From Patescibacteria group bacterium (GTDB lineage Bacteria; Patescibacteriota; Microgenomatia; UBA1400; PJMF01), in the NCBI GenBank assembly GCA_039934415.1, contig JBDTME010000003.1:11821-75820 (forward strand): 64,000 nucleotides of DNA, in the 5' to 3' direction. The notes below the pieces were generated by a model that made no database searches, was not told where the DNA came from, and was given only the letters and a program-made list of their open reading frames with translations. Numbering within the stretch: the stretch's first letter is position 1; each line of letters opens with the position of its first letter. The position numbers and the translations under genes are program-made. This document shows positions 3,341 through 30,597 of this stretch, piece by piece.

Positions 3341-3416
3341 ATGTAGCCAGAGTATAAATTATAGTTTTCTGTAATGCTAGATTAACAAAATGTATCATAT
3401 ATTAAAAATGTTTTGG

Positions 3417-6400
3417 TTATGGTGCTCCTGTATCAGGTCCAAATCGAGCAGTGGATGCGTCGTTTTTCACGAGCTTGACTTGGATGGGAGTGAGTGCGTA
3501 CGGGTAAAGTCTGACGTCATCGACGAGTCCTGCAAAGTAATTAGTTGATGTATACGATCGGGTTCCAATCCGAATATTTGAAGTTGTTGCCATCGCGTCA
3601 GTTCCCATCGCTGTTGCCGTTCCGTTCGCTTGGCCGTCAATATAAACTTGACCATTTCCATCGCGATCGATGGTGCAGCCAATGTGGTGCCAGTTGGTAT
3701 CGGTGATAGCGGAAGTACTGGTGACGTCGGTATTATCCTCACTACATAAGACTAGATTGGAACTATTAAACATCATACGCCAGCCATCATTGTCGGCGTC
3801 TTCTTTACTGATGATGTACTCTGTGCCTGTAGTAGTTCGTTTGACCCAAGCAAAGATGGAGAAGTCCTGGGTGGATGGATTGAAGCGTAGATTGGTAGAG
3901 TCGCTGACTTGGACGTAGTCATCCGTGCCATCAAGGCCTATGGCATAGTTTCTTTTGCCTGTGGTGCCAGCGTTCCACGCCTCGGTACTGGTACCAGAGC
4001 CACAGGTGCCAGTTGAGGTATAGGTACTTGTGGCGCCGATAGTGACGGTTCCTGTATAGGTATTTCCTGATGAGTCATTGGCAGTGGTGGCTTGGCAATC
4101 ATCCATCTTCCATTGGGCGAGTGGAGCGCCTCGGTTATAGTCATACCAGATCTGTGAATTGGTACGTGCATAATTATAAAATTTAAACTCGTCAAGTTTG
4201 CCTTCATACATCTCACCATCATAGCAAGTACTCGTAGCGACAGAGGCACAGGCGAGGAAAGAGTAGTCAGTGTTCTCGTCGATGTCAGCAAAAAAACAGT
4301 TTGTCGATGAAGAACCAGATGTGTAGGTCACTGTGACTTGTATCCCGTCAATGTACATCTTGTTGCCACTGCCATTTGCCACCCAAGTGAAGTAATGCCA
4401 GGCAGTTTGTGTCCCAGGCAAGGCGGAATATCCTTCGATATTTGTGCCTCCGTCGCAGCCAGTTGTCCAGACATTTACTCGATCAGTAGAACGTTCGTAG
4501 GCAAACTCGATACCATTATTATTGCATGCGGTATCACACATTGAGAACATGTCCTGGAAATCATCTCCAGTATCATCTGGTTTGAACCAAAAGCCCATGG
4601 TGCCGACTGTGTAGCCATCAAAGATGTCTGTACCGAAGTAGCCGCTAGTATTCACGCTTGTTTCACTCCCATCAAAATGTATACCTGAGCCATAATAGCC
4701 AGGTTGCCAGGCATAAGTTTGTCGCAAAGCTGCATCGAGGCCGTTGCCAGAGTGATCGACAGCTGTTGCTCCCGTGTTTTCGTCCATGTTGAGATAGATA
4801 ATTGGAGAGGTACCAGTGCCATCAGTCGACTGTGCACTTTCGACGGTCCCGTTACTGAAGTTGGTGGTGGAGTTTGCGTTATAATCCACTTCAACTTCTT
4901 GGTCTGTCAGTAGTGCAGAATACATTTTCACTTCGTCAATCTTGCCGGTAAAGGCTGTATTGGTAGCGACTGCATCTGTTGTGTCATAATCACCAACCGC
5001 GAAGTCAGAACCCAGGTCTTCTATGCCAAGGAAAGAAGCATTGACAGTGTTTTGTTGGATGAGATGTCCGTTCACATAGAGCTTGAGATCACCTGCTGCT
5101 CCAGCGATACCTCCGTTAAATGTAAACATGACGTGATACCACGTGTTAGTTGAGACGAGGTCGTTCGATTGTGAGGCTGTCAGCGCTTGAGAGGCAGATT
5201 CGTCATATACTTGGACTGCGAAATTCCCGGTTGTGTCTCCGTCATCATTAGTGACGTAGAGTTTATACGCAGCTTGGTTACTCGTGTCGTCCCACTTCGT
5301 GATAATGGCATCTTGTTCGCCTGAACCTGGCATAGTGGTGACGTACACCCAGGCTGAGCCAGAGAAAGGTTCAGCAGCGTTAAAGTCCACTTCACTGTCA
5401 GATGCCGTGGCAAGACTGACTCGATCGTTGGTCCCATCAAAGAGGAGCCCACTACTGTACTTACCACTAGTGGTCCAACCAGAAGTAGTGGTAGCCGGGG
5501 ATGACATATTGGTGAGGGTGCCGTTGGAGGCATTTCCAGAGCCTGTGTCATTTGCGGTAGTGCTGTAGTTTTCATCAAATTTCCAATTAAGTACTTGCGA
5601 TCCGGCCAGTGAGGCAATCTCTTGAGTACTCAAAGCACGGTTATAGAGGCGAACATCATCGATGGTACCATCAAATGAGTTATTGAAACTATTATCGAGT
5701 GAGCCAATATGGAGTCTATCAGAGTTTGTCCAAGAGCCTGTGTAGGCTACGGTGGTAAGTAGTTGGCCGTTAGTATAAAAAATGACAGCAGTTGAGGTTT
5801 TAACGAGCACGACATGAATCCACTTGCCTGTGGTAATCGCGCCAACTGCACTACTGGCGGTGCCATTGACACCAGATTCGCCAGATAGAAATTGTAGCGT
5901 ACCTGCAGAGTTAAAAAAAAGTTCGTAATCTAGAGTGCCATTGGTGGAACGTTTAGAGAAGAGTGCTTTTGTGGCTGCCACAGTATTCGCTTTCATCCAC
6001 AGTGAGATCGTCATGTCGGTCGCTGAAGTATCAAGTGAAGTACTATTTAGAATCTGAACGTCGTCAGTGGTGCCATCAAACGCGACACCTGCACCATACA
6101 GTCCAGTCGTGAAGGTGGCACCATTTTGCCAGGCACCATCGTTGCCTTGTCCTGACTTATCACAAGTATCATTTGAACCACCCGAACATGTGTTTGCACC
6201 GGTTTCATCCATTGGCCAGTAGCCAATGAGTCCTTGGCTTAACAAGTCATTTTTCTGTTTGCCTAATACAGCTGAAGACCCTCGACTTGTTGCGCCTTTG
6301 ATCGTGTCTGTTTTTACCTCACTGGCACTACGCGCATAGCGATATATTTTCACCTCATCGAGGTACCCATCCCACCCAGAAGTTCCGGTACTGTCGTTTC

Positions 6401-7493
6401 CCACATACAAAGCATCCGCATTGGCCAGGGAACCCACTCCGGAAATGGAGGTGTTTTGGTTTACCTGTGAACCATCAATGTATAGGGTAAGTGATGAATT
6501 TCCATTTTTTACACAAGAGAAATAATGCCAAGTGCTGTCGTCATAATTGGCATTCGTGGTACCAGCAGAAGCATCGGGGTCAAATGTGTCATCGTCGTCA
6601 ATCCCACAGACTATATCACCGTCAGCATCCATATAGACTTTATACCCTCCATCGGATCCAGCGACACCGTGTTTGCCTACAATGTAGTCTATTGCAGAAA
6701 TTCCTGCGTGTTTAAACCAACCAGAGATTGTGAAACTATCTGATGCAGTGAAATCAAAATCTGAGTCATCAGCCCGTGTCAAATAGTCACCACTCCCATC
6801 GAAATTAAGACATGTTCCAGAAACGCACTGATCTTTTGAGGTCCAAGTGCCGTTTGTTTTAGCTAGATCTTTGCCATTACTCGTTTGATCACATGCATCA
6901 TTACTTCCTCCAGAGCAGGAATCATTAGCGCTTTCGTCGAACTTCCAAAATGCAGTAGGACCAGGAGATGCAACTTCGTTTGTTCGATCAGTGATCGATG
7001 CTGGATCGCCACCGGAAGGTGTAAGAGCAGTAGTTCCTGTCGAATCCACTTCCACATTCGTCGCTAAGGGGTTGCCATAATAGATGTAGCCCACATTTGT
7101 GCCATTGATGATATTAGGAAAAATAATTTCGTACGTGGTGGCAGCGTTATTACAGGTACCGGTCAGGTCAAAGTTGAGCAGCTTCCCGTTGATATCAGTA
7201 AAGCGAGTATCGTCACAGTCAGACTGCATGATGCCGGCCGCGATCATCTCAGCTGTATCAAACGTAAAGGTGATCTTGCGATCTGCTGAGACCGTTGCGT
7301 TGTGGGTGAAGGTGAACCTTTGACGATAATGGTAGCCATCATCAAACCAGGTTGCTCCAGCTTTACCAGGGTGGAGGATTAAGGTGTATGCAGCTGGCAA
7401 GAGCAACAAGACGAATACCAGCACCAACGTCAATACATAACGGGGATTCATCCTTCGCATTTTCGACTGGTGGTTTTTTCTTCTAAGGAACAT
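3417..7493 (-). CDS. Secreted or anchored 1358-aa protein with 5-6 LamG / concanavalin A-like lectin domains
   Basis: N-terminal signal/anchor (LTLVLVFVLLLLPAAYTLIL). The LamG hallmark recurs: DGYLDEVKIYRYARSASEV, DGTIDDVRLYNRALSTQEIASL, GKIDEVKMYSALLTDQEVE, GKLDEFKFYNYARTNSQI, LVDDVRLYPYALTPIQV. The start lies 6 nt after the stop of the giant gene on the same strand. Confidence 0.8.
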   Translation of the reverse strand: MFLRRKNHQSKMRRMNPRYVLTLVLVFVLLLLPAAYTLILHPGKAGATWFDDGYHYRQRFTFTHNATVSADRKITFTFDTAEMIAAGIMQSDCDDTRFTDINGKLLNFDLTGTCNNAATTYEIIFPNIINGTNVGYIYYGNPLATNVEVDSTGTTALTPSGGDPASITDRTNEVASPGPTAFWKFDESANDSCSGGSNDACDQTSNGKDLAKTNGTWTSKDQCVSGTCLNFDGSGDYLTRADDSDFDFTASDSFTISGWFKHAGISAIDYIVGKHGVAGSDGGYKVYMDADGDIVCGIDDDDTFDPDASAGTTNANYDDSTWHYFSCVKNGNSSLTLYIDGSQVNQNTSISGVGSLANADALYVGNDSTGTSGWDGYLDEVKIYRYARSASEVKTDTIKGATSRGSSAVLGKQKNDLLSQGLIGYWPMDETGANTCSGGSNDTCDKSGQGNDGAWQNGATFTTGLYGAGVAFDGTTDDVQILNSTSLDTSATDMTISLWMKANTVAATKALFSKRSTNGTLDYELFFNSAGTLQFLSGESGVNGTASSAVGAITTGKWIHVVLVKTSTAVIFYTNGQLLTTVAYTGSWTNSDRLHIGSLDNSFNNSFDGTIDDVRLYNRALSTQEIASLAGSQVLNWKFDENYSTTANDTGSGNASNGTLTNMSSPATTTSGWTTSGKYSSGLLFDGTNDRVSLATASDSEVDFNAAEPFSGSAWVYVTTMPGSGEQDAIITKWDDTSNQAAYKLYVTNDDGDTTGNFAVQVYDESASQALTASQSNDLVSTNTWYHVMFTFNGGIAGAAGDLKLYVNGHLIQQNTVNASFLGIEDLGSDFAVGDYDTTDAVATNTAFTGKIDEVKMYSALLTDQEVEVDYNANSTTNFSNGTVESAQSTDGTGTSPIIYLNMDENTGATAVDHSGNGLDAALRQTYAWQPGYYGSGIHFDGSETSVNTSGYFGTDIFDGYTVGTMGFWFKPDDTGDDFQDMFSMCDTACNNNGIEFAYERSTDRVNVWTTGCDGGTNIEGYSALPGTQTAWHYFTWVANGSGNKMYIDGIQVTVTYTSGSSSTNCFFADIDENTDYSFLACASVATSTCYDGEMYEGKLDEFKFYNYARTNSQIWYDYNRGAPLAQWKMDDCQATTANDSSGNTYTGTVTIGATSTYTSTGTCGSGTSTEAWNAGTTGKRNYAIGLDGTDDYVQVSDSTNLRFNPSTQDFSIFAWVKRTTTGTEYIISKEDADNDGWRMMFNSSNLVLCSEDNTDVTSTSAITDTNWHHIGCTIDRDGNGQVYIDGQANGTATAMGTDAMATTSNIRIGTRSYTSTNYFAGLVDDVRLYPYALTPIQVKLVKNDASTARFGPDTGAP

Positions 7494-7499
7494 TGGTTT

Positions 7500-10400
7500 T
7501 TACTCTACTTTCACAATCCAGAAATTAAAGTTGATATCCTGAGTGACGGCATTCTTTATGCCCACTGTGAATGATTTTTGGCAAGAGGCGAGTGCCAGTG
7601 GACCATTACATGTTTCCTTGGATTTTAGATAGAGTACTTGGTTGGCGGTATCCGAAGTCGGGGTGAGGTAGATGAGACCGTTTTCAGAAACATTGTTGTT
7701 CTCAATCGTAAGCTCCGTTGCTAGTGCTGGCAAGATCATACTACCGGCAGTTTTGTTTTTGGCAGCTTGTGAGATTGAGGCGGAGTCTGTTGCTTGAGAA
7801 ACAGGTTGTTTAATGACGATGCCTTGAGTAGCCAGGTCCTTGAATCGAGCGGATCCAGAGGCGTCAATCGAAGCGACTGCCGAGTTACTTGCATCAAGAA
7901 TGGAGAACTTAGACTGGGTTGATTCACCCAACACTGCAGATTCAGTTGCGAGTTTGAGAGTGAAGTCACTTGAGTAATCATTTAACTGCATCGCATTTGT
8001 GTTCAATTGTTGCTTCACAGCTAAGTTTCCATTGACGACCAAATCTCCGTTTATTTCCACGTTTCCGTCGGGATTGAGTACTAATAGTCCGGCAAGGATA
8101 TTTACCGTGGCAGTGTTGGTGGGTTGGATGAACAACGTTTGTCCAGCGACAGCAATAGTATCACCGGTAAAGAGCAAGTTGTTTCCAATTGTTAAGTTTG
8201 ATGAGACAGATGCAGAGTTGAGTTGAGTGTATCCCGCTACTGATAAGTACTCTTTAACGAATAGGGCACTTGGTGCCAAGACGAGGTCTTCACTGGTCAA
8301 CTGAATATTTTGTTGTTGAGCTATTGATTGAATCGCAGCTGAGACTGACGCATCGCTGGAGCCAGTAAGTTGAGACATAAATTGATCAAAGGCAGAAGAC
8401 TTGACTGTTTGTGGAGCCTGTTGGATTGCTTGAGTAATTTGTTCAGTTTGTGCAGATAATGAGGCGAGATAGCTATCATTGTCAGTGATGATATTTTGAA
8501 TACTGCGGCCATCAGACAAGAATAGTTCACCGGAGATTGTTGCTGATCCAACCTCGAGAGAAGCGAGCTGTGCTTGTTGGGCTTTGAGCTGTTCGAAGCG
8601 ACCAGTGCTGGCCTGGACTGAACCAGAAGCGATCAAGTCTTGTTGAGCCGAGATGGTGCCAACAATGTCTGTGTTACCTTGTTGATCTATAGTCAAGATG
8701 TCTTGATTGTTCTTATTTGTGATGTGCAGTTTATTCTGATCAGCGTCTCCAAGATTAAAGCTGAGTTGCTGCCCACTGATTGGAGAGATCAGCGAAGTCT
8801 GAACCTTTGGTGTAATGAGTTTATCTTTGATGGTGATGCGATCGGCGATCAACTCTTTCGTTGTGATCAGTCCTGCTTGGATTTCACCCACAATTAAGCG
8901 AGCGAAGACTCCAACTCTACTTACTACTTGAGAAGTGGCGTCTGCAATGACTGAAAAACGGCCGTTTGCAGATTGGCTTGGTGTTTGGATCGTGTAATTA
9001 CTGCTCAATGAGCCGTCAGTACTGAGTGTGAGACCCATTGCATTGTCTTTGACAAATGATTCATACAGGACTGAGATGAGTTTGTGTTTTTTGCCGCCTG
9101 CGGTGGTAGTAGTGACGGTTGACCAATCGACCGGTTCTGCGACACGGGCGAAGATGTAACTCTTGTCAAACTGGCCTGCCTCTTTCATAGCATGACCTTC
9201 AACATTGGAGGAGATCAAGTAATCACCAGCTTGCAGGTTTTCGCCTTGATCGACGACCCAGACCTCACCGTTTCCAGCTGCCATGATCAACTGAGGATTT
9301 TTGTTCGAAGCAGGTTGAGAGGATTCTTGGAGCGCTAGATATGAGCCAAGAATTTTAGGATCATTGGCTACTGTAGACTTGACTACTCCATATAAAATTT
9401 CGGACTCGACTCGATCTCCAAGTCGTCGGTTGTCATCAGTCAGTGTGACGATCTCACCTTTGTTGATGGATTGATCTGTCCAAGCATAGTGTGATCCTGT
9501 GAAGGCGTTGTAGGAAACTGTAGTGCCTGAGACTGAGATAGAACCTTCTTGCGTGCCATCTTGTTGAAGCGAGATGATCGTTCCGTCACTGGTGTTGCGA
9601 TTGAAACTGGCCACAGTAGTTCCAGAGACAGTGAACAATGAACCGCCCGGAGCATCGACGTTGAGGAGTCCAGTGCCATATGTTCGCAGAGTGAGATTAT
9701 TATTTTCAAAAGTTTCGCCTGAGGCAATCGTGAGTGGTCCATTCGATTTGATAAAGCTAGCGGTTTGATTGGTGAACTGAATATCATAAGCAATTGCGAC
9801 ATCACCGGCTGCAGTGAACTCGGCAGGTAAGGCATTACTAATCAGAGATTGCGACACGCCAAAGACTTCACTGCTATCATCTTGGACGCTGAAAATTTTA
9901 CTGATGTTCCCATACGTACCCACGTTTAAGGTCAACAAACTACTGCCCGCTGAGGCGAAGATCTCGGTAGAACCTGAAGGTGACCAGTCGAAGTTGGCAA
10001 AATCAGATGTCGTTAAAACGGTTGAAGTAGAGGAGACGTTGATCGCTCTTCCTGTGGTCAAGCCATTTTCAGTGATGTTGAGTGCGTTGGCAGTTGCGAT
10101 CGAGTTTGCCGTGATGTCGATCAGATTCTCAGTAGCGAGTGCGCCAGACCAGTCGATGTCAAAGAGGCCTCCTCGAGTACCAGCACCATTTAAATCGAAC
10201 GTTGCGACCGCACCAGTTGAGTTGTTATCGTTGACTTCAAACATACTGGCAGTTCTGACCGAGGCAGAGTTCCCAACAACTAAAGCTTGGGCGTTGACCG
10301 CGGTAGCGCCCAAATCAATATTAATGACGTCACCAGTTGCAGCTTGAGCGCCAATATTGACATCAATCAGATTTGAGGTGAAAGCACCTGATGTGGTGAG

Positions 10401-13400
10401 GTCGATGAAGTTTTCCGTTGATAGAGCACCGGTGATATTTGCATCAAGGAATCCACCGCGAGTTTCAGCTGAGTCCCATTGAATAGTTGGAGCTGAGCCG
10501 GAGGTATTGTTTTCATTGATATCAATCAAAGCTGTTGTTCTGATACCAGCGGTTGGACTGAGATCGATGGCTTCATTGCCAACTGCCGAAACGATGGCGA
10601 TGCCGGTATCAAAGCCGGAACCAATATTGATACCAGTCTCAGTGCCTCCAGTACCAGTGAGGGTGAGGTTGATACCATTTAAAATATCACCAGCACTTGT
10701 TCCACCAGAGGTTAGAGCAATATTTAAACCATTATTTGTGATACTAGCACCGTCGCCGGTAACAAAAGTTAGACCGATTCCACTTGCATTAGCGGTAGTT
10801 GTGCCTAAGCCAGCGTTACTAATTGCTACCATGTCACCAGTTGGAGCCGAGGTCACTTGAGACACCTGGAAGTTAGTACCGGCGATTGGCCTAATCACTA
10901 AACTTCCATCTGTAGCATTAAGTGTGATTAATGCATTACTGCCATCCGCGTCATTATCATAAGCGTTTTGAAGTGTGGTAGTAGTAGAACCTATCCAGCC
11001 ACAGTTCACTGAAGCAGCGGTACAGAGCAATCGGCTTCCCCAGTACAAGTCACCCGTTGGTTGACCTGCACCTGCTCCAAAGCTCAGTGTGTTGTTGGCA
11101 CTGGCATCATTATTGAGTCCAATACTATTGCCGTAAGCAGAGATAGTGTTGGTCAATACCAGGTCACCGGTTGTACCACCGTCAGTGAAAGTGGCGATGT
11201 CATTGCCCGAGGTGTCTTCGATTGTCCAGACGCTTGAAGAAGAGGAGAATTGTCGAATGCCATTGCCCAGAATAAAGTTATCACCTACATTGATTGCATT
11301 TACGATTTCAGCGTCAGAAACATCGAGTGCATCAGTGATGACGCCTGATGCATTTACTGCCCGGATTAAGAGTCCATCCGCAGTGGTGACTGCGCCAGTT
11401 GAGTCAAGTTGTGCCAAGACTCCAGTTGATGAGGACGTGAGTAAAATACCTTGTCCGGTGCCCGCATTGGTGATATCAATCACTGATCCAGAGGCGTTTG
11501 CATAATTTTGAGCGGCCGATATTATATTGGAAGTGTCAGTACACGTCCCTGATGTTTGGGTACACGTCGAAGTGAAAGAAGCGAGATCGCCACTAATTGT
11601 ATACGTTGTGCCACCGTTGACTGTATTTGATCGATTTAAATCGAGATAATTACCAGTATCGTCTATTGAACCACTTGTTAAAGTGCGGCCCGGGTTGACT
11701 TTAATATAGTCCCCAGTGAAGGCACTAATCGCCCCAGAAGTGTTGCCGGTCATGCTGATACCGATGCCTGAGGTAGCTGAAGAAATACTAGAGAAACCAA
11801 GCCAAGTGTTGGCAGCTGTTTGTGACAAGTCTAGAACAGAAGAGGTTGAACCTGTGTCGCTATTTGAAAAAGAGACGAGGGAACTAGCACTATTATTAGA
11901 GCCGTTACTCGCTTGAGTGACAGAGAGAGCTGAGGTTGTGCGGGCACCTTGGGCGAGATCAGAGGTAACGCTGACTGTTCCCAGACCATTGAGTGGGAGG
12001 AAGTTGATGTCTCCAGTGGTTGCTCCGCCAACTGTCAATTTCTGGTTGGCAGTGGTTTGCAGTGATCCGGCGGCAGTCAGGTAAGCACCTCCGGCATCAC
12101 CTGCAGATAGTGAAGCGGTCGGAGTGCCCGAGTTCACGTTGAGGACTGCAAATTTGGCAGAGGTTGTGGCCGTGTTTCCAATTAAGAGATCGAGTGTATC
12201 GTTAACTGGTGAGATAGCTCCGTTGGCAATTCTCCAGTAGTTGGCACTGGCACAAGCACTAAAGGTAGGCGCGCCACCAGCATTGGACTTCAGACATTCT
12301 CCGGCGCTCCCTTGTCCAGTTTGAGCGACGACTCCAGAACCATTGGTATATAGCAGTCCACCGTCGGTCGTAAAAGTTGAGAGTGTTAGAGAAGAGTCAA
12401 AGCGAACTGCGCCGTCAACTTCGAACTCATCTTGAACGTAGAGATCATTATCACCGTCAGCCGTATTATTGGTAGCTGTTGAGCTCGCGAAAAAGTTAAA
12501 CGCCGCGGCTGCTGCGCCACCGACATTCAAGGTATTGCCATCGGCAAAGATGACATTATTACCAGCAGCGCTGATCGTGAGGTCGCCGGTCGTCGTAATA
12601 TCACCACCGTTGACTGCAAGATCGCCAGCCGTTGTGATATTGCCAGAGGCTTGAGCAACGGAGAAGTTGGCACCACCCACTGTCAGATTGGCTCCGGTGA
12701 CATCTAACCCGTTTGTTGCATCGACATTTCCGTCGAATTGAGCTTGGCCATCCACTTCAAATGTACCCTCTATATACCCATCTTCACCGTTTTGAGTTAA
12801 GCCTGGAGTGCCATTGCCGACTTTGAGATTTCCATCAAGTATGTTGAAAAGGGTTGCTGCCCCTAGATCTGCGGTGATAGCACCTGCTCCATTGAGTGGA
12901 AGGAGCGTAATGTCACCAGTGGTTGCACCACCAATAGTTAAGGCTTGATTGTCAGTTGTTTGTAATGTGCCTGTGGCATTAAGGTACGCACCCCCGGCAG
13001 TTCCAGCTGACAAAGAAGCAGTCGGGTTTCCAGAGTTAACATTAATAATGGCAAATTTGGCAGAGGTTGTGGCCGTGTTTCCAATCAAGAGATCAAGTGT
13101 ATCGTTGACAGGTGAGATGGCGCCGTTGGCAATTCTCCAGAAGTTTGAACCCGCTGCACTACAACTCGTCCAGGTTGGGGCGCCACCAGCATTGGAAACT
13201 AAACACTCTCCTGATGAACCTGCTGTTGTTTGTGCGACCACGCCAGAGCCATTGGTGTACAACAGTCCGCCATTCGTCGTAAAGGTCGAGAGTGTAAGGG
13301 ATGAATCAAAACGAACCGCGCCATCTACTTCCAAAACATCTTGAATATAGAGATCGTTATCACTTGCAGCCGTAGAGTTGCCGGCCGTAGAGTCAGCGAA

Positions 13401-16400
13401 AAAGTTAAACGCCGCGGCTGCCGCGCCACCCACATTCAAGGTATTACCATCGGCAAAGATGACATTGTTTCCTGCCGCATTGATCGTGAGGTCGCCAGTT
13501 GTCGTGATATCTCCACCATTGACTGCCAAATCGCCAGCCGTTGTGATATTGCCCGAGGCTTGGGCAACGGAGAAGTTAGCACCGCCTACTGTCAGATTCG
13601 CACCCGTTACATCGAGCCCATTGGTTGCATCGACATTACCGTCAAACTGAGCTTGGCCATCAACCTCAAAGGTTCCTTCAATGTAAGCATCTTCACCATC
13701 TTGAGTTAAGTTTGGTGTGCCATTTCCAACTTTGAGATTTCCGTCAAGGATTGTGAATAGACTGGTTGTGCCTAAGTCAGCTGTAATGTTGCCAGCGCCG
13801 TTCAAAGGCAAGAAGGAAATATCACCTGTCGTTGTTCCACCTAGAGTCAGGGTTTGATCTGCGGTGGTTTGTAAAACACCGGTGGCGGTTAAATATGCAC
13901 CACCAGCGGCTCCGGCAGAGAGGGAAGCTGTGGGTGTGCCAGAGTCTACATTTATAATAGCGAATTTGGCTGAAGCAGTAGAAGTACCACCGATGAGGAG
14001 ATCAAGTGTTTCATTGACAGGGTAGTGAGCACCATTCGCAATGGTCCATGTGCCTGCATTGCCACCTGAGCCACATGTTCCCCAGGTCGGAGCGCCAGTG
14101 CCGCCAGATTTTAGACAATCACCACCTGAGCCTGCAGTCGAAGTAAGTAGTTGTCCAGAACCGTTGGTGTAAACGATGCCACCGGCAGTATTGAGCGTTG
14201 AAAAAGTGACCGTGCCATCAAAACGAGCCGCACCGTCAACTTCCAAAACATCTTGAATATAGAGATCGTTGTCAGTGGCAGCGGTAGAATTACCGGCCGT
14301 AGAATCCGCAAAAAAGTTGAAAGTAGTACCAGCCGCGCCACCTACTCCCAACGTATTTCCGTCAGCCAGTAAGACGTTATTACCTGAAGCATTAATTGTG
14401 AGATCACCAGCTGTTGTGATGTCTCCACCATTCACTGCCAGGTCGCCAGCCGTTGTGATGTTGCCAGAAGCAGGAGCAACGGAGAAGTTACCACCGCCCA
14501 CTGTCAGATTGGAGCCGGTGACATCAAGGCCGTTGGTGGCATCAACATTGCCATCAAATTGAGCTTGGCCATCAACCTCAAAGGTGCCTTCAATGTATGC
14601 GTCTTCACCATCCAAGGTTAATCCGGGAGTGCCGTTTCCGATTTTTAAATTACCATCTAAAACATTAAACAAACTGGTTGTGCCTAAGTCAGCTGTAATG
14701 TTGCCCGCGCCGTTCAAAGGCAAGAAAGAAATGTCTCCCGTTGTCGTTCCGCCTAATGTTAGAGTTTGGTCGGCGGTGGTTTGTAAAATACCGGTAGCGG
14801 TTAAATACGCACCACCAGCGGCTCCAGCAGAGAGAGAAGCGGTGGGTGTGCCAGAGTCGACATTAATGATGGCAAACTTTGCCGAAGCCGTAGAAGTGCC
14901 ACCGATCAGAAGATCGAGCGTTTCATTGATTGGGTAGTGTGCGCCATTGGCAATAGTCCACGTGCCAGCACTTCCACCACCTCCTGCACACGCACCCCAG
15001 GTCGGAGCACCGGTGCCACCCGATTTGAGACAGTCGCCACCAGAGCCAGAAGCTGAGGTCAAAAGTTGTCCAGAACCATTGGTGTAGACAATGCCACCGG
15101 CTGTATTGAGTGCAGAAACCGTGACGGTGCCATCAAAGCGAGCCGCGCCATCTACTTCTAAAACATCTTGAATATAGAGATCATTGTCAGTGGCAGCAGT
15201 TGAATTACCGGCTGTGGAATCCGCAAAGAAGTTATATGCCTGAGCGCCAGCCCCTCCAATATTGAGCACGGTATTATTGGAAAAGATGACGTTACCACCA
15301 GCAGGGTTAATCGTAAGATCACCTGTGGAAGTGATATCTCCGCCATTGACTGCCAAATCGCCGGCAGTGGTAATGTCACCAGCATTGTTGACAGTTAATA
15401 CTTGTCCGCCAGTTCCATTGATGACGAGTGGGGTACTACCAGCATAGGTTGCACTGATCGTTGCTCCGTGAGTGAAGATGTATCCATCGTTAATCACATT
15501 CCCATTGAGATTTATTGTGCCAGTCCCATCAGGGTCTATGATAATGTTTCCATTGCTGCCAGAGTTGGTGACTAAGTTCAAAGTAGCCCCAGAAATAGTG
15601 AAAGTGCCACCGACCGATCGTAGTTGTGGTGATTGCTCACCGAGTAACACTTCACCCCATTGATTCATTACCACCACAGTACTCTTCGATGCTCCAGCTG
15701 TTGCGTTGACAGGGAACCCTTGTAGGGTTTCCGCATTTAAGGCATATGGAACGGTTGCGATGCGCTGGCGAGGAGTCAGTACGTCTGAGACGACCGTAAT
15801 TTCTAGCCAGACTTGGCTATTCTCAGTAAACACCGTGGCATCAATCGCACTGCCACAAGTACTGCCCAAGATCGTCGAGAAGATCCCATCTTGATCTGGG
15901 TCAATACTACAAGTTCCCGAATTCCAGAGCAGGTTTCCTGCCGAAGAAGCATCCCAGAGTTTAAACGTGGTGTTCGTCGCTGTCGTAATAGGTGTCCCTG
16001 CAACATCGGTCAACCTCGCTTGAAAAGATAGGATTCTGTCGGCGGTGACTGGTGCTGCTGGAAAGGCAAATTTCTCTGGAACATTCACGAAGAATTGCCG
16101 ATACCACAAGATTGAAATGAATATAAAGAAAATGACGAGCGTCGCCAAATGAAAATATGGGCCGAGAATCCAGTCTTGGTACTTTTTGCGGTCAGCAGTT
16201 TTTTCGTCTGTGGTCTCTTTTGCACTCAGCTCATCTTGATTTTGAGATGGGGGGCGTTGAGTAAAAAATGCAGGCAGCTCTTGAATTGAGGTGGTTGATG
16301 CAGAAGGAGTAGGTGTCAGAGTAGGTGTGGGTGGGGTGACCACCTGAGGAGTCTCCGTGTGTTGTGACTCCGTGCTTAAGTAGTTTTTTTCAACCCAATT

Positions 16401-16754
16401 TGAAAATAATTTCAGACTCACAATTTTTCGTTGAATACTCGAACTTTTTAATCCTTTTTCTTGCTGATCAGCAAAGAAGCCTTTGAAGTTCTGTTCGCTC
16501 AAGACCGTCTGAATATTGTCGTCATTTGAAAAATCGAGGAATTGGAGAATGTCGCTGGAGTAGTTTCTCAGTGTTGATTTACTAACCGAAAGGGAACTCA
16601 GTTCTTTCAAAAACAGCTCCACGCAATGTTTGGCGGAAAGTGGTTGAGGTGAAGGCGCGTATTCTTGGTTTTCCACAACACCAGAAACACCCTCATCTTT
16701 TCGCTTGAATAGGCCTATGAAATTGCTGGAAAACTGTTTAATTTGGGCGAACAT
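7500..16754 (-). CDS. Giant (3084 aa) type-II-anchored surface protein with an N-terminal cytoplasmic XerD-N/SAM-like domain, a PT linker, one TM helix and a large Gly/Thr/Asn-rich beta-solenoid-like ectodomain containing four ~303-aa tandem repeats
   Basis: A single uninterrupted 9255-nt ORF. TM helix at aa 199-218 (YFHLATLVIFFIFISILWY) with positive residues before it. Repeat units share NITTAGDLAVNGGDIT...FNFFADSTAGNSTAATDNDLYIQDVLEVDGAARFDG...GGDCLKSGGTGAPTWG.C. The C-terminal region has coiled-coil / tail-fibre-like low-complexity segments. Confidence 0.85.
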   Translation of the reverse strand: MFAQIKQFSSNFIGLFKRKDEGVSGVVENQEYAPSPQPLSAKHCVELFLKELSSLSVSKSTLRNYSSDILQFLDFSNDDNIQTVLSEQNFKGFFADQQEKGLKSSSIQRKIVSLKLFSNWVEKNYLSTESQHTETPQVVTPPTPTLTPTPSASTTSIQELPAFFTQRPPSQNQDELSAKETTDEKTADRKKYQDWILGPYFHLATLVIFFIFISILWYRQFFVNVPEKFAFPAAPVTADRILSFQARLTDVAGTPITTATNTTFKLWDASSAGNLLWNSGTCSIDPDQDGIFSTILGSTCGSAIDATVFTENSQVWLEITVVSDVLTPRQRIATVPYALNAETLQGFPVNATAGASKSTVVVMNQWGEVLLGEQSPQLRSVGGTFTISGATLNLVTNSGSNGNIIIDPDGTGTINLNGNVINDGYIFTHGATISATYAGSTPLVINGTGGQVLTVNNAGDITTAGDLAVNGGDITSTGDLTINPAGGNVIFSNNTVLNIGGAGAQAYNFFADSTAGNSTAATDNDLYIQDVLEVDGAARFDGTVTVSALNTAGGIVYTNGSGQLLTSASGSGGDCLKSGGTGAPTWGACAGGGGSAGTWTIANGAHYPINETLDLLIGGTSTASAKFAIINVDSGTPTASLSAGAAGGAYLTATGILQTTADQTLTLGGTTTGDISFLPLNGAGNITADLGTTSLFNVLDGNLKIGNGTPGLTLDGEDAYIEGTFEVDGQAQFDGNVDATNGLDVTGSNLTVGGGNFSVAPASGNITTAGDLAVNGGDITTAGDLTINASGNNVLLADGNTLGVGGAAGTTFNFFADSTAGNSTAATDNDLYIQDVLEVDGAARFDGTVTFSTLNTAGGIVYTNGSGQLLTSTAGSGGDCLKSGGTGAPTWGTCGSGGNAGTWTIANGAHYPVNETLDLLIGGTSTASAKFAIINVDSGTPTASLSAGAAGGAYLTATGVLQTTADQTLTLGGTTTGDISFLPLNGAGNITADLGTTSLFTILDGNLKVGNGTPNLTQDGEDAYIEGTFEVDGQAQFDGNVDATNGLDVTGANLTVGGANFSVAQASGNITTAGDLAVNGGDITTTGDLTINAAGNNVIFADGNTLNVGGAAAAAFNFFADSTAGNSTAASDNDLYIQDVLEVDGAVRFDSSLTLSTFTTNGGLLYTNGSGVVAQTTAGSSGECLVSNAGGAPTWTSCSAAGSNFWRIANGAISPVNDTLDLLIGNTATTSAKFAIINVNSGNPTASLSAGTAGGAYLNATGTLQTTDNQALTIGGATTGDITLLPLNGAGAITADLGAATLFNILDGNLKVGNGTPGLTQNGEDGYIEGTFEVDGQAQFDGNVDATNGLDVTGANLTVGGANFSVAQASGNITTAGDLAVNGGDITTTGDLTISAAGNNVIFADGNTLNVGGAAAAAFNFFASSTATNNTADGDNDLYVQDEFEVDGAVRFDSSLTLSTFTTDGGLLYTNGSGVVAQTGQGSAGECLKSNAGGAPTFSACASANYWRIANGAISPVNDTLDLLIGNTATTSAKFAVLNVNSGTPTASLSAGDAGGAYLTAAGSLQTTANQKLTVGGATTGDINFLPLNGLGTVSVTSDLAQGARTTSALSVTQASNGSNNSASSLVSFSNSDTGSTSSVLDLSQTAANTWLGFSSISSATSGIGISMTGNTSGAISAFTGDYIKVNPGRTLTSGSIDDTGNYLDLNRSNTVNGGTTYTISGDLASFTSTCTQTSGTCTDTSNIISAAQNYANASGSVIDITNAGTGQGILLTSSSTGVLAQLDSTGAVTTADGLLIRAVNASGVITDALDVSDAEIVNAINVGDNFILGNGIRQFSSSSSVWTIEDTSGNDIATFTDGGTTGDLVLTNTISAYGNSIGLNNDASANNTLSFGAGAGQPTGDLYWGSRLLCTAASVNCGWIGSTTTTLQNAYDNDADGSNALITLNATDGSLVIRPIAGTNFQVSQVTSAPTGDMVAISNAGLGTTTANASGIGLTFVTGDGASITNNGLNIALTSGGTSAGDILNGINLTLTGTGGTETGINIGSGFDTGIAIVSAVGNEAIDLSPTAGIRTTALIDINENNTSGSAPTIQWDSAETRGGFLDANITGALSTENFIDLTTSGAFTSNLIDVNIGAQAATGDVINIDLGATAVNAQALVVGNSASVRTASMFEVNDNNSTGAVATFDLNGAGTRGGLFDIDWSGALATENLIDITANSIATANALNITENGLTTGRAINVSSTSTVLTTSDFANFDWSPSGSTEIFASAGSSLLTLNVGTYGNISKIFSVQDDSSEVFGVSQSLISNALPAEFTAAGDVAIAYDIQFTNQTASFIKSNGPLTIASGETFENNNLTLRTYGTGLLNVDAPGGSLFTVSGTTVASFNRNTSDGTIISLQQDGTQEGSISVSGTTVSYNAFTGSHYAWTDQSINKGEIVTLTDDNRRLGDRVESEILYGVVKSTVANDPKILGSYLALQESSQPASNKNPQLIMAAGNGEVWVVDQGENLQAGDYLISSNVEGHAMKEAGQFDKSYIFARVAEPVDWSTVTTTTAGGKKHKLISVLYESFVKDNAMGLTLSTDGSLSSNYTIQTPSQSANGRFSVIADATSQVVSRVGVFARLIVGEIQAGLITTKELIADRITIKDKLITPKVQTSLISPISGQQLSFNLGDADQNKLHITNKNNQDILTIDQQGNTDIVGTISAQQDLIASGSVQASTGRFEQLKAQQAQLASLEVGSATISGELFLSDGRSIQNIITDNDSYLASLSAQTEQITQAIQQAPQTVKSSAFDQFMSQLTGSSDASVSAAIQSIAQQQNIQLTSEDLVLAPSALFVKEYLSVAGYTQLNSASVSSNLTIGNNLLFTGDTIAVAGQTLFIQPTNTATVNILAGLLVLNPDGNVEINGDLVVNGNLAVKQQLNTNAMQLNDYSSDFTLKLATESAVLGESTQSKFSILDASNSAVASIDASGSARFKDLATQGIVIKQPVSQATDSASISQAAKNKTAGSMILPALATELTIENNNVSENGLIYLTPTSDTANQVLYLKSKETCNGPLALASCQKSFTVGIKNAVTQDINFNFWIVKVE
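11800..15450 (-). repeat. Four tandem in-frame repeats of about 910 nt (about 303 aa) inside the giant gene; copies 1-2 and copies 3-4 are nearly identical pairwise (A A' B B')
   Basis: Period measured from the recurring antisense-frame motif AKKLNAAAAAPPTFKVLPSAKMTL near 12.55, 13.46, 14.37 and 15.28 kb (spacings 909, 915, 912 nt). The nucleotide sequence at 12469 and at 13378 is about 90% identical. Confidence 0.8.
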
Positions 16755-18798: not shown

Positions 18799-20742
18799 TT
18801 AAGCGAAGAGATCTTTGTAGAGCTGTTGAGCGTCTTCCATGACAGCGAGTACGAGCACCTTTCCATTTCTGGCATCTGCGAGATAGAAGTTTTGTACTTT
18901 CCCATCTTCGACCCACACGTACTTTTGCTTACTCAGTGAAACTTGATACTCATTTGGAGGTAGGAATGCCTTAAACGAGCCTTTCTTATCAGTCACTAGC
19001 ACTGACATCAATTGATTAGATTCTTGTAGAAAAATACGCACAAAAACGTTCGCTAAAGGAGCTCCACTACTATCGACCACTTTACCGACGATGAGCGGTC
19101 TTTTTGTCCATCGGACGACCTTCAACACTAACATTGCGATGTAGATGACACAGACTCCCATGTTAATCATGGTAGGAGAGTAGAGAGTGATGAGTATCGA
19201 GATAAAGAACAACGGTAGAAATAAATACTGGGAAAGGCGCAGCAATCTTTCTTTTATCAAACTCCAGGAAATTTTTCGTTCACTCCCTTGCGCTTGGTTG
19301 ATGTGGTCGACAGGGATCAAGAACAGTTGTCTGGTTTTTTCATTTGAGACCTGGAACACTTCACCTTTATAGAACTCAAAGAGTGTTAAATATGTGGGGC
19401 GAGTTTTTACCGTAGGAAATACGAAATCTTGGTGCCGCACCTCGATTTGATACTTTCCCGGCGGTAGTTGAACACCTCCGTACACCCCCTCAGTATTCGT
19501 GACCACCGTTTCAGAGGTGCCTTGAGTATCCACTCTAGAAATATTGAGAATTGCGAAGGCAACTGGCTTTTCTGTCTCACTATCAAAAACCAAACCCTGA
19601 GGTGACGGTGGCGGAAGAATCCCAAGTGCCTGCAAAATTCTAAAGAAAATCTGAACAGACAAACTCCAGCCGAACTGTGTTGCCACCAGTGTAGTTGCAG
19701 CTATTGGAATAGCCACTGATAGCAACGCGGTGGCTATTGGAGCGGTTGCATTACTGAAATCTTTGACCACTTGTGGTATTTGACTGGGTACAAAATTACT
19801 GAGTATATTTTGTACTGTCTCAGTGATAGGTGTTGTAGGAATGCCAGGACCAGGGGTCGGGACGATTGCCGTCGCTCCGGGTTGAGGAGTAGGAACGGGT
19901 GTCGATAGCAAGAACGAGGTAGCAATCAAAAAGTAGACATTGTCTAATGTCGTGATGTGTCCCGCCAAGTCAGTTACGGTGAAGTTCATCGTAATTTTGA
20001 CGTCTCGAGTGAGCAACGGGAGAGTTTGAGACCAGTTGCCGCTGCTATCAACCGTGATGATATAAACCTGACTGGGTTCACTAGGGAGACTGACAGTCAA
20101 AACAATCGTTGCGCCAGCCTCGGAGTTGCCTTTGATGGTTGGTTGATTCGTATAAATGGTCAGGTAGGGGTCGGGACGTGTTGAGAGATCTTGAGATGAG
20201 ATTGAAGTTGTTGTCCCGTCAATCTGAGTGATGACTAGAGTTGGTGAGGTTGTGTCGATGGTGAAGGTCCAGGTGCTACTGTCAGCCGATTTACTATTGT
20301 TATCAACGGCAGTGATTTTCCAAGTGTGCAAGCCATCGGCAATGCTGGCAGAAGGCACCAAGGTATACTGCGTTCCCGACTTTGTGAGCGTGTAATCAAC
20401 ATTCGATGTGGCAGTTAATGGAATGTTGCTATAGAGCGTTGATCCGTCGAGGGTCAGCGTGTAATGATTCATTCCAGCAACAGCTGTGGATTCTTCCCAG
20501 ACAAAGGATGGGGTGTTGTCAGTCGTGATCGAACTATTACTGGGCGAGACCAGGGTTGGAGTCGTGGGTCCTGCGGTGTCTTCGACAGTCAAACTCATGT
20601 TAACTGGTCGATCTTTGGGATTGGTACTTCCAGTTTCACCGGTTAATAAACCACTCTCTTGGGCAAAAAGAGGACTGAATTGAACAGAGACGACGAAACA
20701 GAAAAACAGTATAAATAAAGCCCAGATTTTCTTGCTAAACAT
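18799..20742 (-). CDS. Signal-peptide protein with Big_6-like Ig domains, an internal multi-TM segment and two carboxypeptidase-regulatory-like (CarboxypepD_reg) beta-sandwich domains
   Basis: Signal peptide MFSKKIWALFILFFCFVVSVQFSPLFAQ. Ig-like repeats (PTLVSPSNSSITTDNTPSFVWEE..., TIYTNQPTIKGNSEAGATIVLTV...VDSSGNWSQT). CarboxypepD_reg-like segments GLVFDSETEKPVAFAILNI...GKYQIEV and IVGKVVDSSGAPLANVFVRIF...NEYQVSL. Confidence 0.7.
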   Translation of the reverse strand: MFSKKIWALFILFFCFVVSVQFSPLFAQESGLLTGETGSTNPKDRPVNMSLTVEDTAGPTTPTLVSPSNSSITTDNTPSFVWEESTAVAGMNHYTLTLDGSTLYSNIPLTATSNVDYTLTKSGTQYTLVPSASIADGLHTWKITAVDNNSKSADSSTWTFTIDTTSPTLVITQIDGTTTSISSQDLSTRPDPYLTIYTNQPTIKGNSEAGATIVLTVSLPSEPSQVYIITVDSSGNWSQTLPLLTRDVKITMNFTVTDLAGHITTLDNVYFLIATSFLLSTPVPTPQPGATAIVPTPGPGIPTTPITETVQNILSNFVPSQIPQVVKDFSNATAPIATALLSVAIPIAATTLVATQFGWSLSVQIFFRILQALGILPPPSPQGLVFDSETEKPVAFAILNISRVDTQGTSETVVTNTEGVYGGVQLPPGKYQIEVRHQDFVFPTVKTRPTYLTLFEFYKGEVFQVSNEKTRQLFLIPVDHINQAQGSERKISWSLIKERLLRLSQYLFLPLFFISILITLYSPTMINMGVCVIYIAMLVLKVVRWTKRPLIVGKVVDSSGAPLANVFVRIFLQESNQLMSVLVTDKKGSFKAFLPPNEYQVSLSKQKYVWVEDGKVQNFYLADARNGKVLVLAVMEDAQQLYKDLFA

Positions 20743-20761
20743 ATTTTCAGTCTACTACAAT

Positions 20762-21832
20762 TTAATTTTGTTCATCCTTGAACTGCTCCAACTTTGGTGA
20801 CCGGAGGTGTTTGATTTTTTCACTCAAAATTTCTTTTTCTTTTTTTCTCTCTTGAATAGTTGTGTCCACCTTCTTTTTGAAAAAACCTAGCGTGCTGAGG
20901 AACAAGACCAACACGAACAGCATCGCCAAGATTGCGCGAATGGGAACGAGCCAGAACGAGAAAGAAGCCAATGCGACTTTGCCAGCAGTTCCATAGTTGG
21001 CACTGATCGTGGCGGTATATTTCCCCAGGCCCCATCTTTTACTCCAGGTTTCAGTAAACAGACGTTGAGTAGTCGGGAACACATTCTGAGAAGAAACAGT
21101 GAGTACATCACTAGTGATGCCGAGCATGTTTTTAATCTCGACCTGAATATTAGGATGAATGTGAATATCGGACCGATTGTCGATCACAAATGAAAATGGA
21201 ACAGGTCCGTACTCAAAAAAATCTTTGACCTGGACATCTCTAATGTATGCTTCCTGATTGACCTCACCTTCGACCACGAAGTAGAGCAGTGTCCCGACTC
21301 GTTGAGAAATCCCAGTTCCAGACCCTGCCAAGGTTCCTTCTTCTGAAGGGCGGTGCATGATCATGGCATACCGTCCGCCTGGGAGTGCGTCATTCGGAAC
21401 TTGAATTAATAGATCTAGAGTAGCGAGCTCTCCTGGTTTGAGAGAGTGGGTGGAAGGAATGATGGTAATCCATTTTGCTAGACTCCACCGTGTGGATGTC
21501 GATTCACTCACTGGGATTGGTTGTTTGCCGTCTTCGCCGATTACAAAATCTTCAGCAACTGTGCTGATTTGTTGAGTCTTATTTGAACCATTTTTCACTT
21601 TGACGACAGCTTGAATAGTTTGACCTGGTTTGGCTTTGAGCGAGAAGTCCTCATCACCGAGTCGAGCTGGGATGGCAGTCAGTTGAGAGAGCGAGATGTC
21701 GTCACTAGTTTGAGCAAGTGCGGCAGAAGCAAATGTAAACAAAGTAAGAGGAAGTACTGCTGTTGCCAGAACCACAAAACAACTCAAGATCGTTGTTAGG
21801 CTTTGTTTCTGGTAAGTAAAAAAAACACTCAT
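20762..21832 (-). CDS. DUF916/DUF3324-like cell-surface protein with a C-terminal TM anchor and Lys-rich tail (CscA-like), paralog 1
   Basis: Signal peptide; WSLAKWITI...SLKPGELATLDLLIQVPNDALPGGRYAMIM matches my recollection of the DUF916 core; C-terminal TM helix (ILAMLFVLVLFLSTLGFF) followed by KKKVDTTIQERKKEKE. Confidence 0.65.
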   Translation of the reverse strand: MSVFFTYQKQSLTTILSCFVVLATAVLPLTLFTFASAALAQTSDDISLSQLTAIPARLGDEDFSLKAKPGQTIQAVVKVKNGSNKTQQISTVAEDFVIGEDGKQPIPVSESTSTRWSLAKWITIIPSTHSLKPGELATLDLLIQVPNDALPGGRYAMIMHRPSEEGTLAGSGTGISQRVGTLLYFVVEGEVNQEAYIRDVQVKDFFEYGPVPFSFVIDNRSDIHIHPNIQVEIKNMLGITSDVLTVSSQNVFPTTQRLFTETWSKRWGLGKYTATISANYGTAGKVALASFSFWLVPIRAILAMLFVLVLFLSTLGFFKKKVDTTIQERKKEKEILSEKIKHLRSPKLEQFKDEQN

Positions 21833-30529: not shown

Positions 30530-30597
30530 ATTGAATCCTATATAAATAAACTATTAACAATGATGTTTCGCATCTAAAAACGAGTAAATATTTTTTC

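Follow-up and report, generated by a model that had tools for sequence, protein, structure and literature searches.

Diverged tandem modules in a giant, putatively fibre-forming protein of a Patescibacteria group bacterium

Among the closest described counterparts of the protein studied here are the MAT (mosaic adhesive trimer) proteins of Bdellovibrio bacteriovorus, which have been shown experimentally to be trimeric, tail-fibre-like adhesins of a predatory bacterium; the tip of Bd2133 comprises 370 amino acids and measures about 150 Å, and Bd3182 reaches about 550 Å (PMC10769870). A role in host recognition or attachment has also been proposed for giant surface proteins from Candidate Phyla Radiation (CPR) bacteria, in the passages devoted to such proteins in the reports on Vampirococcus lugosii (PMC8080830) and on the Absconditicoccaceae (PMC13059738). 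We have analyzed a stretch of 64,000 nucleotides from a Patescibacteria group bacterium (contig JBDTME010000003.1), referred to in its full length as the window, in which a giant gene on the minus strand encodes a protein of 3,084 amino acids with a tandem array of long coding repeats. With a probability of roughly 0.6, we consider these repeats to be conserved modules that build the extracellular shaft of a fibre. This fibre would be anchored at its N-terminus, resemble a tail fibre and probably be a homotrimer, and the number of modules would set its length and reach. All coordinates given below are window positions, and both the array and the giant gene lie on the minus strand.

The resemblance to the MATs is one of principle. 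As we picture the window protein, it is like the MATs a long surface fibre with a repetitive, beta-helical build, made by a bacterium whose life depends on other bacteria, and MATs appear to share with the window family phage tail-fibre-like modules and a loop motif of the type V/I-G-x-G-T..P/A..K-L/F; optionally, they end in a phage intramolecular-chaperone domain. However, MATs have only about 1,000 residues against 3,084 in the window protein and are secreted, starting with a signal peptide and a conserved N-terminal beta domain of ~130 residues (PMC10769870), whereas in our case the N-terminus consists of a SAM-like domain, a low-complexity linker and a predicted transmembrane helix at residues 196-225. 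The chaperone-type domain of the window protein is G2-like and internal, that of the MATs is a terminal S74, and a core of ~150 residues with a Cys pair, as found here, is not described for MATs. The taxa differ as well, Patescibacteria in the one case and B. bacteriovorus in the other.

Phage spikes and fibres, for which phi29 gp12 (Peptidase_G2; 3gqh, 3suc, 6qz9) and K1F endosialidase and T5 pb1 (Peptidase_S74) were compared, share with the window family homologous G2/S74 domains and the trimer-associated fold class of the modelled domain, and with the window protein a repetitive shaft rich in Gly, Asn and Thr. In contrast to them, the window gene is cellular and chromosomal and its product is predicted to be membrane-anchored. 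The CPR giants resemble the window protein in exceeding 1,500 residues, in carrying a transmembrane helix or signal peptide and in belonging to an ultrasmall episymbiont, but the passages on them list WD40, PKD, FN3, integrin and concanavalin-type domains and describe neither a SAM-like/transmembrane/fibre/chaperone architecture nor the Cys-pair core (PMC8080830, PMC13059738). Acinetobacter Bap is likewise a giant surface protein with in-frame tandem domains whose repeat number varies between lineages; it has, however, many Ig-like modules of 80-110 residues that are reported to be highly polymorphic between strains (PMC4647330), whereas the window array has about four long units with a DNA divergence of 22-40%. 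Finally, the eukaryotic membrane-bound transcription factor MYRF has, like the window protein, a domain of DNA-binding type, a transmembrane helix and a chaperone domain of phage tail-spike origin on one chain, but in the order DNA-binding domain, ICA (S74) domain, transmembrane helix, and its trimerisation-driven cleavage frees the DNA-binding domain (PMC3742443, PMC8326128). A MYRF-like membrane-tethered transcription factor was rejected because the window protein starts with the SAM-like domain and runs through the transmembrane helix and the ectodomain to the chaperone-type domain. The last of these lies ~2,200 residues past the helix, presumably on the outside, and cannot release the N-terminal domain.

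Anatomy and divergence of the array

A repeat search revealed four direct copies in register with one another, from about 11,990 to 15,430, with start-to-start spacings of 909, 912 and 915 nt, and on the protein level anchor motifs recur every 305, 304 and 303 residues. Tandem Repeats Finder missed the array because its maximum period is 500. As evidenced by a hidden Markov model (HMM) built from units U1 to U3, which scored the four copies with 599, 598, 581 and 355 bits, the similarity is far beyond chance. It begins, at the repeat offset, at residue 438. An initial sequence-only reading of the window had described four units of about 303 residues at this place; the location within the giant gene and the tandem, direct arrangement of the repeats are correct and the full units have 305, 304 and 303 residues, but the fourth is truncated at about 75% of its length, so that the array amounts to ~3.75 units. 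The gene, the array and its parts are the following:

7500..16754, minus strand: giant open reading frame (ORF), 3,084 aa
11949..15443, minus strand: whole tandem array, aa 438-1602, made up of part of a leading linker, three complete units and a truncated fourth
14454..15368, minus strand: unit U1 (A), aa 463-767, 305 aa, Cys 575/589
13542..14453, minus strand: unit U2 (A'), aa 768-1071, 304 aa, Cys 880/894
12633..13541, minus strand: unit U3 (B), aa 1072-1374, 303 aa, Cys 1184/1198
11949..12632, minus strand: unit U4 (B'), aa 1375-1602, truncated to HMM positions 1-230 of 305, Cys 1487/1501
14676..15134, minus strand: core W1, aa 541-693
13764..14219, minus strand: core W2, aa 846-997
12855..13307, minus strand: core W3, aa 1150-1300
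11952..12398, minus strand: core W4, aa 1453-1601

Each unit contains a pair of Cys residues at a spacing of 14 residues. The pair itself had been recognized before, together with the motif GGDCLKSGGTGAPTWG.C, but this is exact in U1 and U2 only, with the variants GECLVSNAGGAPTWTSC in U3 and GECLKSNAGGAPTFSAC in U4. As HMM matches in homologues cover mainly positions 79-230, the unit is best described as a super-module of two halves, a conserved Cys-pair core of ~150 residues and a Gly/Asn/Thr-rich linker of ~150 residues that looks beta-helix-like. The signature of the core is G-x-C-L-x-S-x-G-x-G-x-P-x-W-G-x-C ... W-x(4)-G-A-I-x-P-x-N-x-T-L-D-L-L-I-G-G-T-x-T-x-S-A-K-F-A-V-L-N-V-N-S-G-T-P-T-A-S.

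The copies are not near-identical. Instead of the ~90% nucleotide identity within pairs that had been suggested, codon-aligned identity is 78% between U1 and U2 and 74% between U3 and U4, and 60-68% between pairs; a value of ~90% fits the amino acid level, where U1 and U2 are 87% identical overall, with 93-94% for the cores, and U3 and U4 78%. The best 300-nt windows show 84% nucleotide identity, and 90% is attained only in isolated windows of 60 nt. Nei-Gojobori estimates for units within a pair yielded a proportion of synonymous differences (pS) of 0.57-0.58, a synonymous divergence (dS) of ~1.1 and a ratio of nonsynonymous to synonymous divergence (dN/dS) of 0.07-0.13, with a range of ~0.8-1.5 for within-pair dS, saturated synonymous sites between pairs and a dN/dS of ~0.05-0.1 in the cores. 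For comparison, within-pair pS spans 0.50-0.65 as against a saturated 0.76 for the flanking ectodomain of L001, the orthologue described below. By these estimates, all copies have been under strong purifying selection since duplication.

The proposed A A' B B' arrangement holds for the core halves, where 1 pairs with 2 and 3 with 4. The pairing as a whole is a mosaic, however, as the closest linkers are those of units 2 and 3 (83% nucleotide identity, dS 0.83), and cores 3 and 4, with 71%, are less alike than these. The longest exact run common to any two units is 33-35 nt, adjacent units have just 2-5 31-mers in common, and within 11800-15450 every k-mer of at least 36 nt is unique. RecA-mediated exchange requires ~25-30 bp of perfect identity, and its efficiency falls by orders of magnitude above 10-20% divergence. 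With a within-pair divergence of 22-26% and exact runs of at most 35 nt, efficient RecA exchange and assembly collapse are thus both unlikely, and as no 36-mer is repeated, a de Bruijn graph with k of at least 41 or reads of 100-150 nt would resolve every copy. The array shows neither the identity of ~95% or more nor the long exact runs of a recombination-prone, near-identical array. The sequence-only reading had seen in it a present-day recombination hot spot prone to assembly collapse, with an under-called copy number; the short runs, the divergence and the high dS speak against each of these points.

The core module and its family of giant proteins

In the following, counts refer to the 120 best homologues unless stated otherwise. 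The core is present in 81 of them with 456 copies, the median being 5 per protein and the highest number 18, and in giant Patescibacteria proteins it recurs 3-18 times. An exhaustive profile search among 1.84 billion representatives located it in 1,433 clusters formed at 50% identity, of which 395 match at E<1e-30; proteins of 2,000-7,400 residues with up to 18 copies are frequent among them. A profile search of a word-indexed database returned mostly fragments of 100-260 residues and contributed little. The homologues have ~1,700-5,300 residues, and where a source organism is named it is a member of the Patescibacteria group, Woesebacteria or Pacebacteria. Close, strain-level relatives were found neither in JGI metagenomes nor in GTDB genomes, with a single GTDB orthologue at ~60% identity, and a search of 5.8 billion proteins gave the identical NCBI entry followed by a next match at 41% identity; a look-up of the exact protein in the contig index returned no record. 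No model in Pfam, NCBIfam or PHROG matches the repeats at residues 438-1620. A literature search yielded no paper describing the family, and a preprint on giant genes of Omnitrophota does not mention it. A phmmer search of the repeat unit against the PDB produced noise only, with plastocyanin at E 0.006, and was discarded.

Among the core copies, 139 have both Cys residues, 167 have neither and 20 have one only. This both-or-neither pattern is expected of a disulfide, and we predict one in the 14-residue Cys loop. In the window protein the 16 Cys residues beyond the transmembrane helix form eight sequence-local pairs with none left over (282/300, 575/589, 880/894, 1184/1198, 1487/1501, 1731/1738, 1911/1918 and 3049/3058), and the sole further Cys is C44 in the N-terminal domain.

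The members of the family have a common architecture. It begins with a presumably cytoplasmic SAM-like or MerR domain and continues through a single transmembrane helix into a giant ectodomain and a chaperone domain of phage type, either S74 or phi29-gp12/G2-like. In the window protein, the regions other than the array are these:

16395..16622, minus strand: N-terminal integrase SAM-like domain (core-binding type), aa 45-120, Pfam PF02899 at E 1e-6 to 1e-7
16080..16169, minus strand: single predicted transmembrane helix, ~aa 196-225, preceded by RKK, from a Kyte-Doolittle scan
9096..9536, minus strand: divergent phi29-gp12/Peptidase_G2-like domain of intramolecular-chaperone type, aa 2407-2553
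7503..8933, minus strand: family-conserved C-terminal region, aa 2608-3084, with a terminal Cys pair (3049/3058) and a stretch resembling a coiled coil

A SAM-like N-terminus was found in ~98 homologues and a MerR/HTH domain instead in six (P0008, P0043, P0056, P0058, P0071 and P0118), and this exchange suggests that the DNA-binding module itself is the conserved feature. In the window protein, the SAM-like domain is joined to the helix by a low-complexity linker and would be cytoplasmic, with the helix in an N-in topology. The protein is identical to NCBI entry MEO8581627.1, 'MAG: site-specific integrase [Patescibacteria group bacterium]', a singleton in clustering at 90% identity. An identity as tyrosine recombinase or integrase was rejected, as the SAM-like N-terminus is the sole matching part: no recombinase catalytic domain (Phage_integrase, R-H-R-Y) follows it according to Pfam and NCBIfam, and the NCBIfam XerC/XerD models align over positions 3-95 of ~295 with 24-36 bits, at cut-offs of 220-335. 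In the absence of the catalytic domain, the public name is thus a misannotation.

Residues 2407-2553 match an iterated family profile of the G2-type domain at E 2e-28. The family profile in turn matches two structures of phi29 gp12, 6qz9 and 3gqh, at E 2e-8; the match sets in precisely where the cleaved fragment 3gqh has its first residue. In addition, 12 of 26 aligned homologue segments match PF11962 (best E 4.9e-10). An AlphaFold2 (AF2) model of the domain, with a predicted local distance difference test score (pLDDT) of 79 and a predicted template modelling score (pTM) of 0.72, resembles 3gqh_A (probability 0.80, E 0.049) and capsid-associated chains from phage capsid reconstructions (E 1.6e-4, probability 1.0), namely those of Borrelia phage BB1, cyanophage Pam3 and HFTV1 and the TW1 capsid-stabilising protein; we take these chains to be trimeric proteins of the cement or decoration type. 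The autocleavage motif at the start of the domain is (S/G/A)|D-[FLY]-A-E, and chain 3gqh_A begins at that Asp. Motifs of this D-x-x-E type are presumably catalytic, as in gp12. D-x-A/G-E is present in 23 of the 26 aligned sequences; the giant protein and its two nearest relatives, P0007 and P0264, have T-G-S-H-Y-A-W. Among the homologues, P0010 contains a Peptidase_S74 domain at residues 2502-2556 (E 1.9e-16) and P0022 and P0081 a Peptidase_G2 domain, in each case several hundred residues before the C-terminus, at a position equivalent to residues 2407-2553. The region behind it is conserved as well, with 33% identity over 507 residues between the C-terminal 477 residues and P0010 (E 1e-61) and colinearity of the C-terminal 710 residues with P0022.

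A profile of the unit and its homologues matches the MAT fibre Bd2133 (PDB 8ond) at E 1.8e-5 in three stretches. Together with the evidence for the G2-type domain, this makes it reasonable to regard the giant gene as encoding a fibre, as had been suggested from the sequence at the outset. Of the MAT capping-loop motif V-G-G/N-pi-x-x-P-x-x-x-L, the units of the window carry looser variants only, LLIGGTSTASAKF and KVGNGTPNLT. Scaled at ~0.4-0.6 Å per residue according to the MAT dimensions (PMC10769870), each unit might very roughly add 12-18 nm to the fibre. Note that the window protein also contains a smaller internal duplication at ~10110-10520 (aa ~2079-2215), with an offset of 95 residues and at most 48% identity per 40-residue window; IDINENNTSG... 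and FEVNDNNSTG... are example copies.

History of the array and competing explanations

The one orthologue retrieved in the GTDB scan, L001 (contig CAZOWX010000016.1), has colinear upstream genes with ~65% amino acid identity. Its gene (3001-6810) runs off the contig end within the fourth core, and the assembly thus broke within the array. The cores of L001 are spaced by 288, 193 and 196 residues, and its later period of ~195 residues differs from the 304 of the window because its later linkers are devoid of a ~110-residue segment present in the latter. The metagenome-assembled genomes of L001, L002, L006, L009 and L011 are titled 'uncultured Pseudomonadales' or 'uncultured Gammaproteobacteria bacterium' although the gene is of the Patescibacteria type, and these titles are probably mislabels or reflect contaminant contigs in the bins.

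A neighbour-joining tree (200 bootstraps) of the window cores W1-W4 and the L001 cores La, Lb and Lc groups (La,(W1,W2)) with bootstrap values of 98 and 100, and recovers a B clade with 100, in which W3 and W4 are joined with 96 and Lb and Lc with 67. These groupings place a single core of each type, A and B, in the common ancestor. Judged from this tree, A appears to have duplicated in the window lineage and B separately in both lineages, and the A A' B B' order may stem from two single-unit tandem duplications or from conversion between neighbours. Given the mosaic pattern, with linkers 2 and 3 the closest, some later exchange is likely. Module duplication recurs in the family as a whole: core copies resemble others of their own protein more than those of different proteins (median 0.49 vs 0.37), and 14 of 62 proteins contain a best pair with an identity of 80% or more.

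The internal DNA repeats of related loci are mostly 60-88% identical. The exception is L003, where a segment of 431 nt at 2063-2493 and 5246-5676 (3,183 nt apart) is 97% identical with an exact run of 381 nt, within one open frame of at least 4,985 residues that extends across the whole locus. This indicates a recent duplication or conversion. For this family, L003 exemplifies a recombination-prone array, and the window array is not of that kind. The suggestion of RecA-mediated changes in copy number is thus upheld in that the number does change between lineages, as seen in the core tree, in the L001 period and in L003, but a present-day hot spot at this locus is not supported. Our best reading is that copy number changes over evolutionary time and not currently.

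In the model that we favor, the giant protein would be anchored in the membrane at its N-terminus, with the array in the extracellular shaft. Each module would comprise a beta-rich core of ~150 residues with a 14-residue disulfide loop and a beta-helix-like Gly/Asn/Thr-rich linker, and the chain would assemble as a homotrimer in the manner of a phage tail fibre, resembling the MAT fibres of Bdellovibrio in principle, with the phi29-gp12-like chaperone-type domain near the distal end. The fibre would project from the cell and contact a host or partner cell. The steps from A to A A' and from B to B B' would be two separate single-unit tandem duplications after the split from the nearest sampled relative, old ones as judged by a dS of ~1 and followed by purifying selection on every copy. 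As strong purifying selection has acted on all copies, these are likely to be functional shaft or display modules whose number sets the length and reach of the fibre.

A number of observations weigh against this model. The AF2 monomer model of one unit, with a beta-rich core and an extended linker, is moderate only (pLDDT 74, pTM 0.44), without a significant structural neighbour among PDB and BFVD entries, and relatives of the core or unit were found neither in 50,697 phage genomes (tblastn) nor in IMG/VR (pattern scan). The match to Bd2133 is driven by GNVGIGT..P..KL in the linkers of homologues and not by the linker of the window protein. Residues 2407-2553 have no Pfam match, PF11962 included, even at E<=5; ~530 residues follow this domain, unlike in phage spikes, and autoprocessing may be lost as the S|D-x-x-E motif is absent. 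The giant protein itself does not match Peptidase_S74 (PF13884, S-D-x-x-x-K motif), and membership in that family was rejected for this reason. Gene conversion among adjacent copies, in place of independent duplication, might equally have given rise to the topology of the core tree, and the suggested role in host contact has its sole basis in the analogy to MAT fibres and CPR giant surface proteins.

We have weighed this model against three other explanations. The units might be tandem ligand-binding domains, lectin- or adhesin-like, of a monomeric beta-solenoid adhesin or an S-layer-like coat, repeated for avidity or coverage. The AF2 monomer does give a compact, beta-rich core (pLDDT ~80), one homologue is named 'S-layer family protein' and another 'fibronectin-binding autotransporter adhesin' in their sources, the adjacent gene encodes five LamG domains of the lectin type, and purifying selection on the cores would suit a binding surface equally well. 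We nevertheless consider this rather unlikely, since the family bears trimer-forming phage chaperone-type domains (S74/G2) and shows profile similarity to the trimeric MAT fibre, and since the linker is modelled as an extended coil in the monomer, as expected of a chain that needs partners. Moreover, neither an SLH nor any other S-layer anchoring or lattice domain was found in the giant protein with Pfam and NCBIfam, and S-layer membership was dismissed for want of an SLH-type match.

The two remaining explanations concern the DNA. If the A A' B B' pattern were due to concerted evolution, by gene conversion between neighbours in an ancestral array of at least four units, the mosaic similarity of linkers 2 and 3 would be accounted for, which a simple history of two duplications does not predict, and the core tree fits either process. 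The different period of L001 and the missing ~110-residue beta-helix-like insert in its later linkers, however, argue for structural remodelling and not for conversion alone, and with a maximum exact run of 35 nt there is no recent conversion tract; we regard this history as improbable. A still poorer case can be made for an active recombination substrate that undergoes RecA-mediated unequal exchange within populations and whose assembled copy number is collapsed or under-called. The repeats are long, direct and in frame, with a period divisible by 3, copy number did differ between lineages according to the core tree, the L001 contig stops inside its array, many database matches to the core are fragments of 100-260 residues on contigs of 0.5-1.2 kb, and the relative L003 contains the 431-nt repeat with 97% identity. 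The window units, on the other hand, are 22-40% diverged without a single repeated 36-mer, a dS of ~1 leaves no room for recent homogenisation, collapse is not expected with reads of at least 100 nt or k of at least 41, and the contig of 96 kb passes through the array unbroken. We therefore judge this explanation to be very improbable.

Genomic neighbourhood and implications

One neighbouring gene is of immediate relevance to the giant gene:

3417..7493, minus strand: downstream gene, 1,358 aa, five LamG (Laminin_G_3) domains, 6 nt past the stop of the giant ORF

The two genes probably belong to one operon. They stand in a surface-type gene cluster (1217-7493, 18799-21832) that also contains a TPR protein of 707 residues downstream, and a Big_13/CarboxypepD_reg protein and a weak WxL-interacting-like protein upstream of the giant gene. 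A second ORF at 42782-46858 likewise encodes 1,358 residues, but a paralogous relationship to the one at 3417-7493 was rejected as there is no BLASTP similarity, and the equal length is thus a coincidence. The window contains genes for LeuRS, ComEA, ComEC, MreB, glycosyltransferases and three tRNAs, and with such cellular surroundings the giant gene is itself cellular and chromosomal and not a phage gene. Regions 29870-32061 and 38449-40683 hold the competence genes ComEA and ComEC and a TrwB/VirD4-like coupling ATPase; machinery of this kind for DNA uptake or transfer is common in CPR genomes.

That modules are duplicated in tandem within a giant surface fibre is of an already known kind. Less ordinary are the widespread, unnamed Cys-loop module and the way in which the family joins a cytoplasmic domain of DNA-binding type and one transmembrane helix to an ectodomain of phage-fibre type with an internal S74/G2 domain. 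A speculative and rather improbable reading is that the family forms an apparently undescribed class of giant 'inside-out' fibres spread throughout the Patescibacteria. In these, a single transmembrane helix would connect a DNA-binding-type domain in the cytoplasm to a trimeric, phage-tail-fibre-like Cys-loop ectodomain with the internal S74/G2 domain. Should the cytoplasmic domain indeed bind DNA, contact with a host at the fibre tip would be coupled, physically or in a regulatory manner, to the symbiont's chromosome or to incoming DNA, and the copy number of the modules would then tune the distance at which contact is sensed. In practical terms, the array poses no risk of an assembly artefact, and the name 'site-specific integrase' is wrong.

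Much of the diversity of bacteria belongs to the CPR/Patescibacteria, whose members live in attachment to other cells, and beyond type IV pili we know of little that explains how they recognize and hold their hosts. The family analyzed here would provide a recurrent architecture for giant fibres, in which parts of phage tail fibres are placed on a membrane anchor with a DNA-binding-type domain. Fibre length would change by occasional, lineage-specific duplication of modules followed by long purifying selection, and not by rapid, phase-variable slippage.

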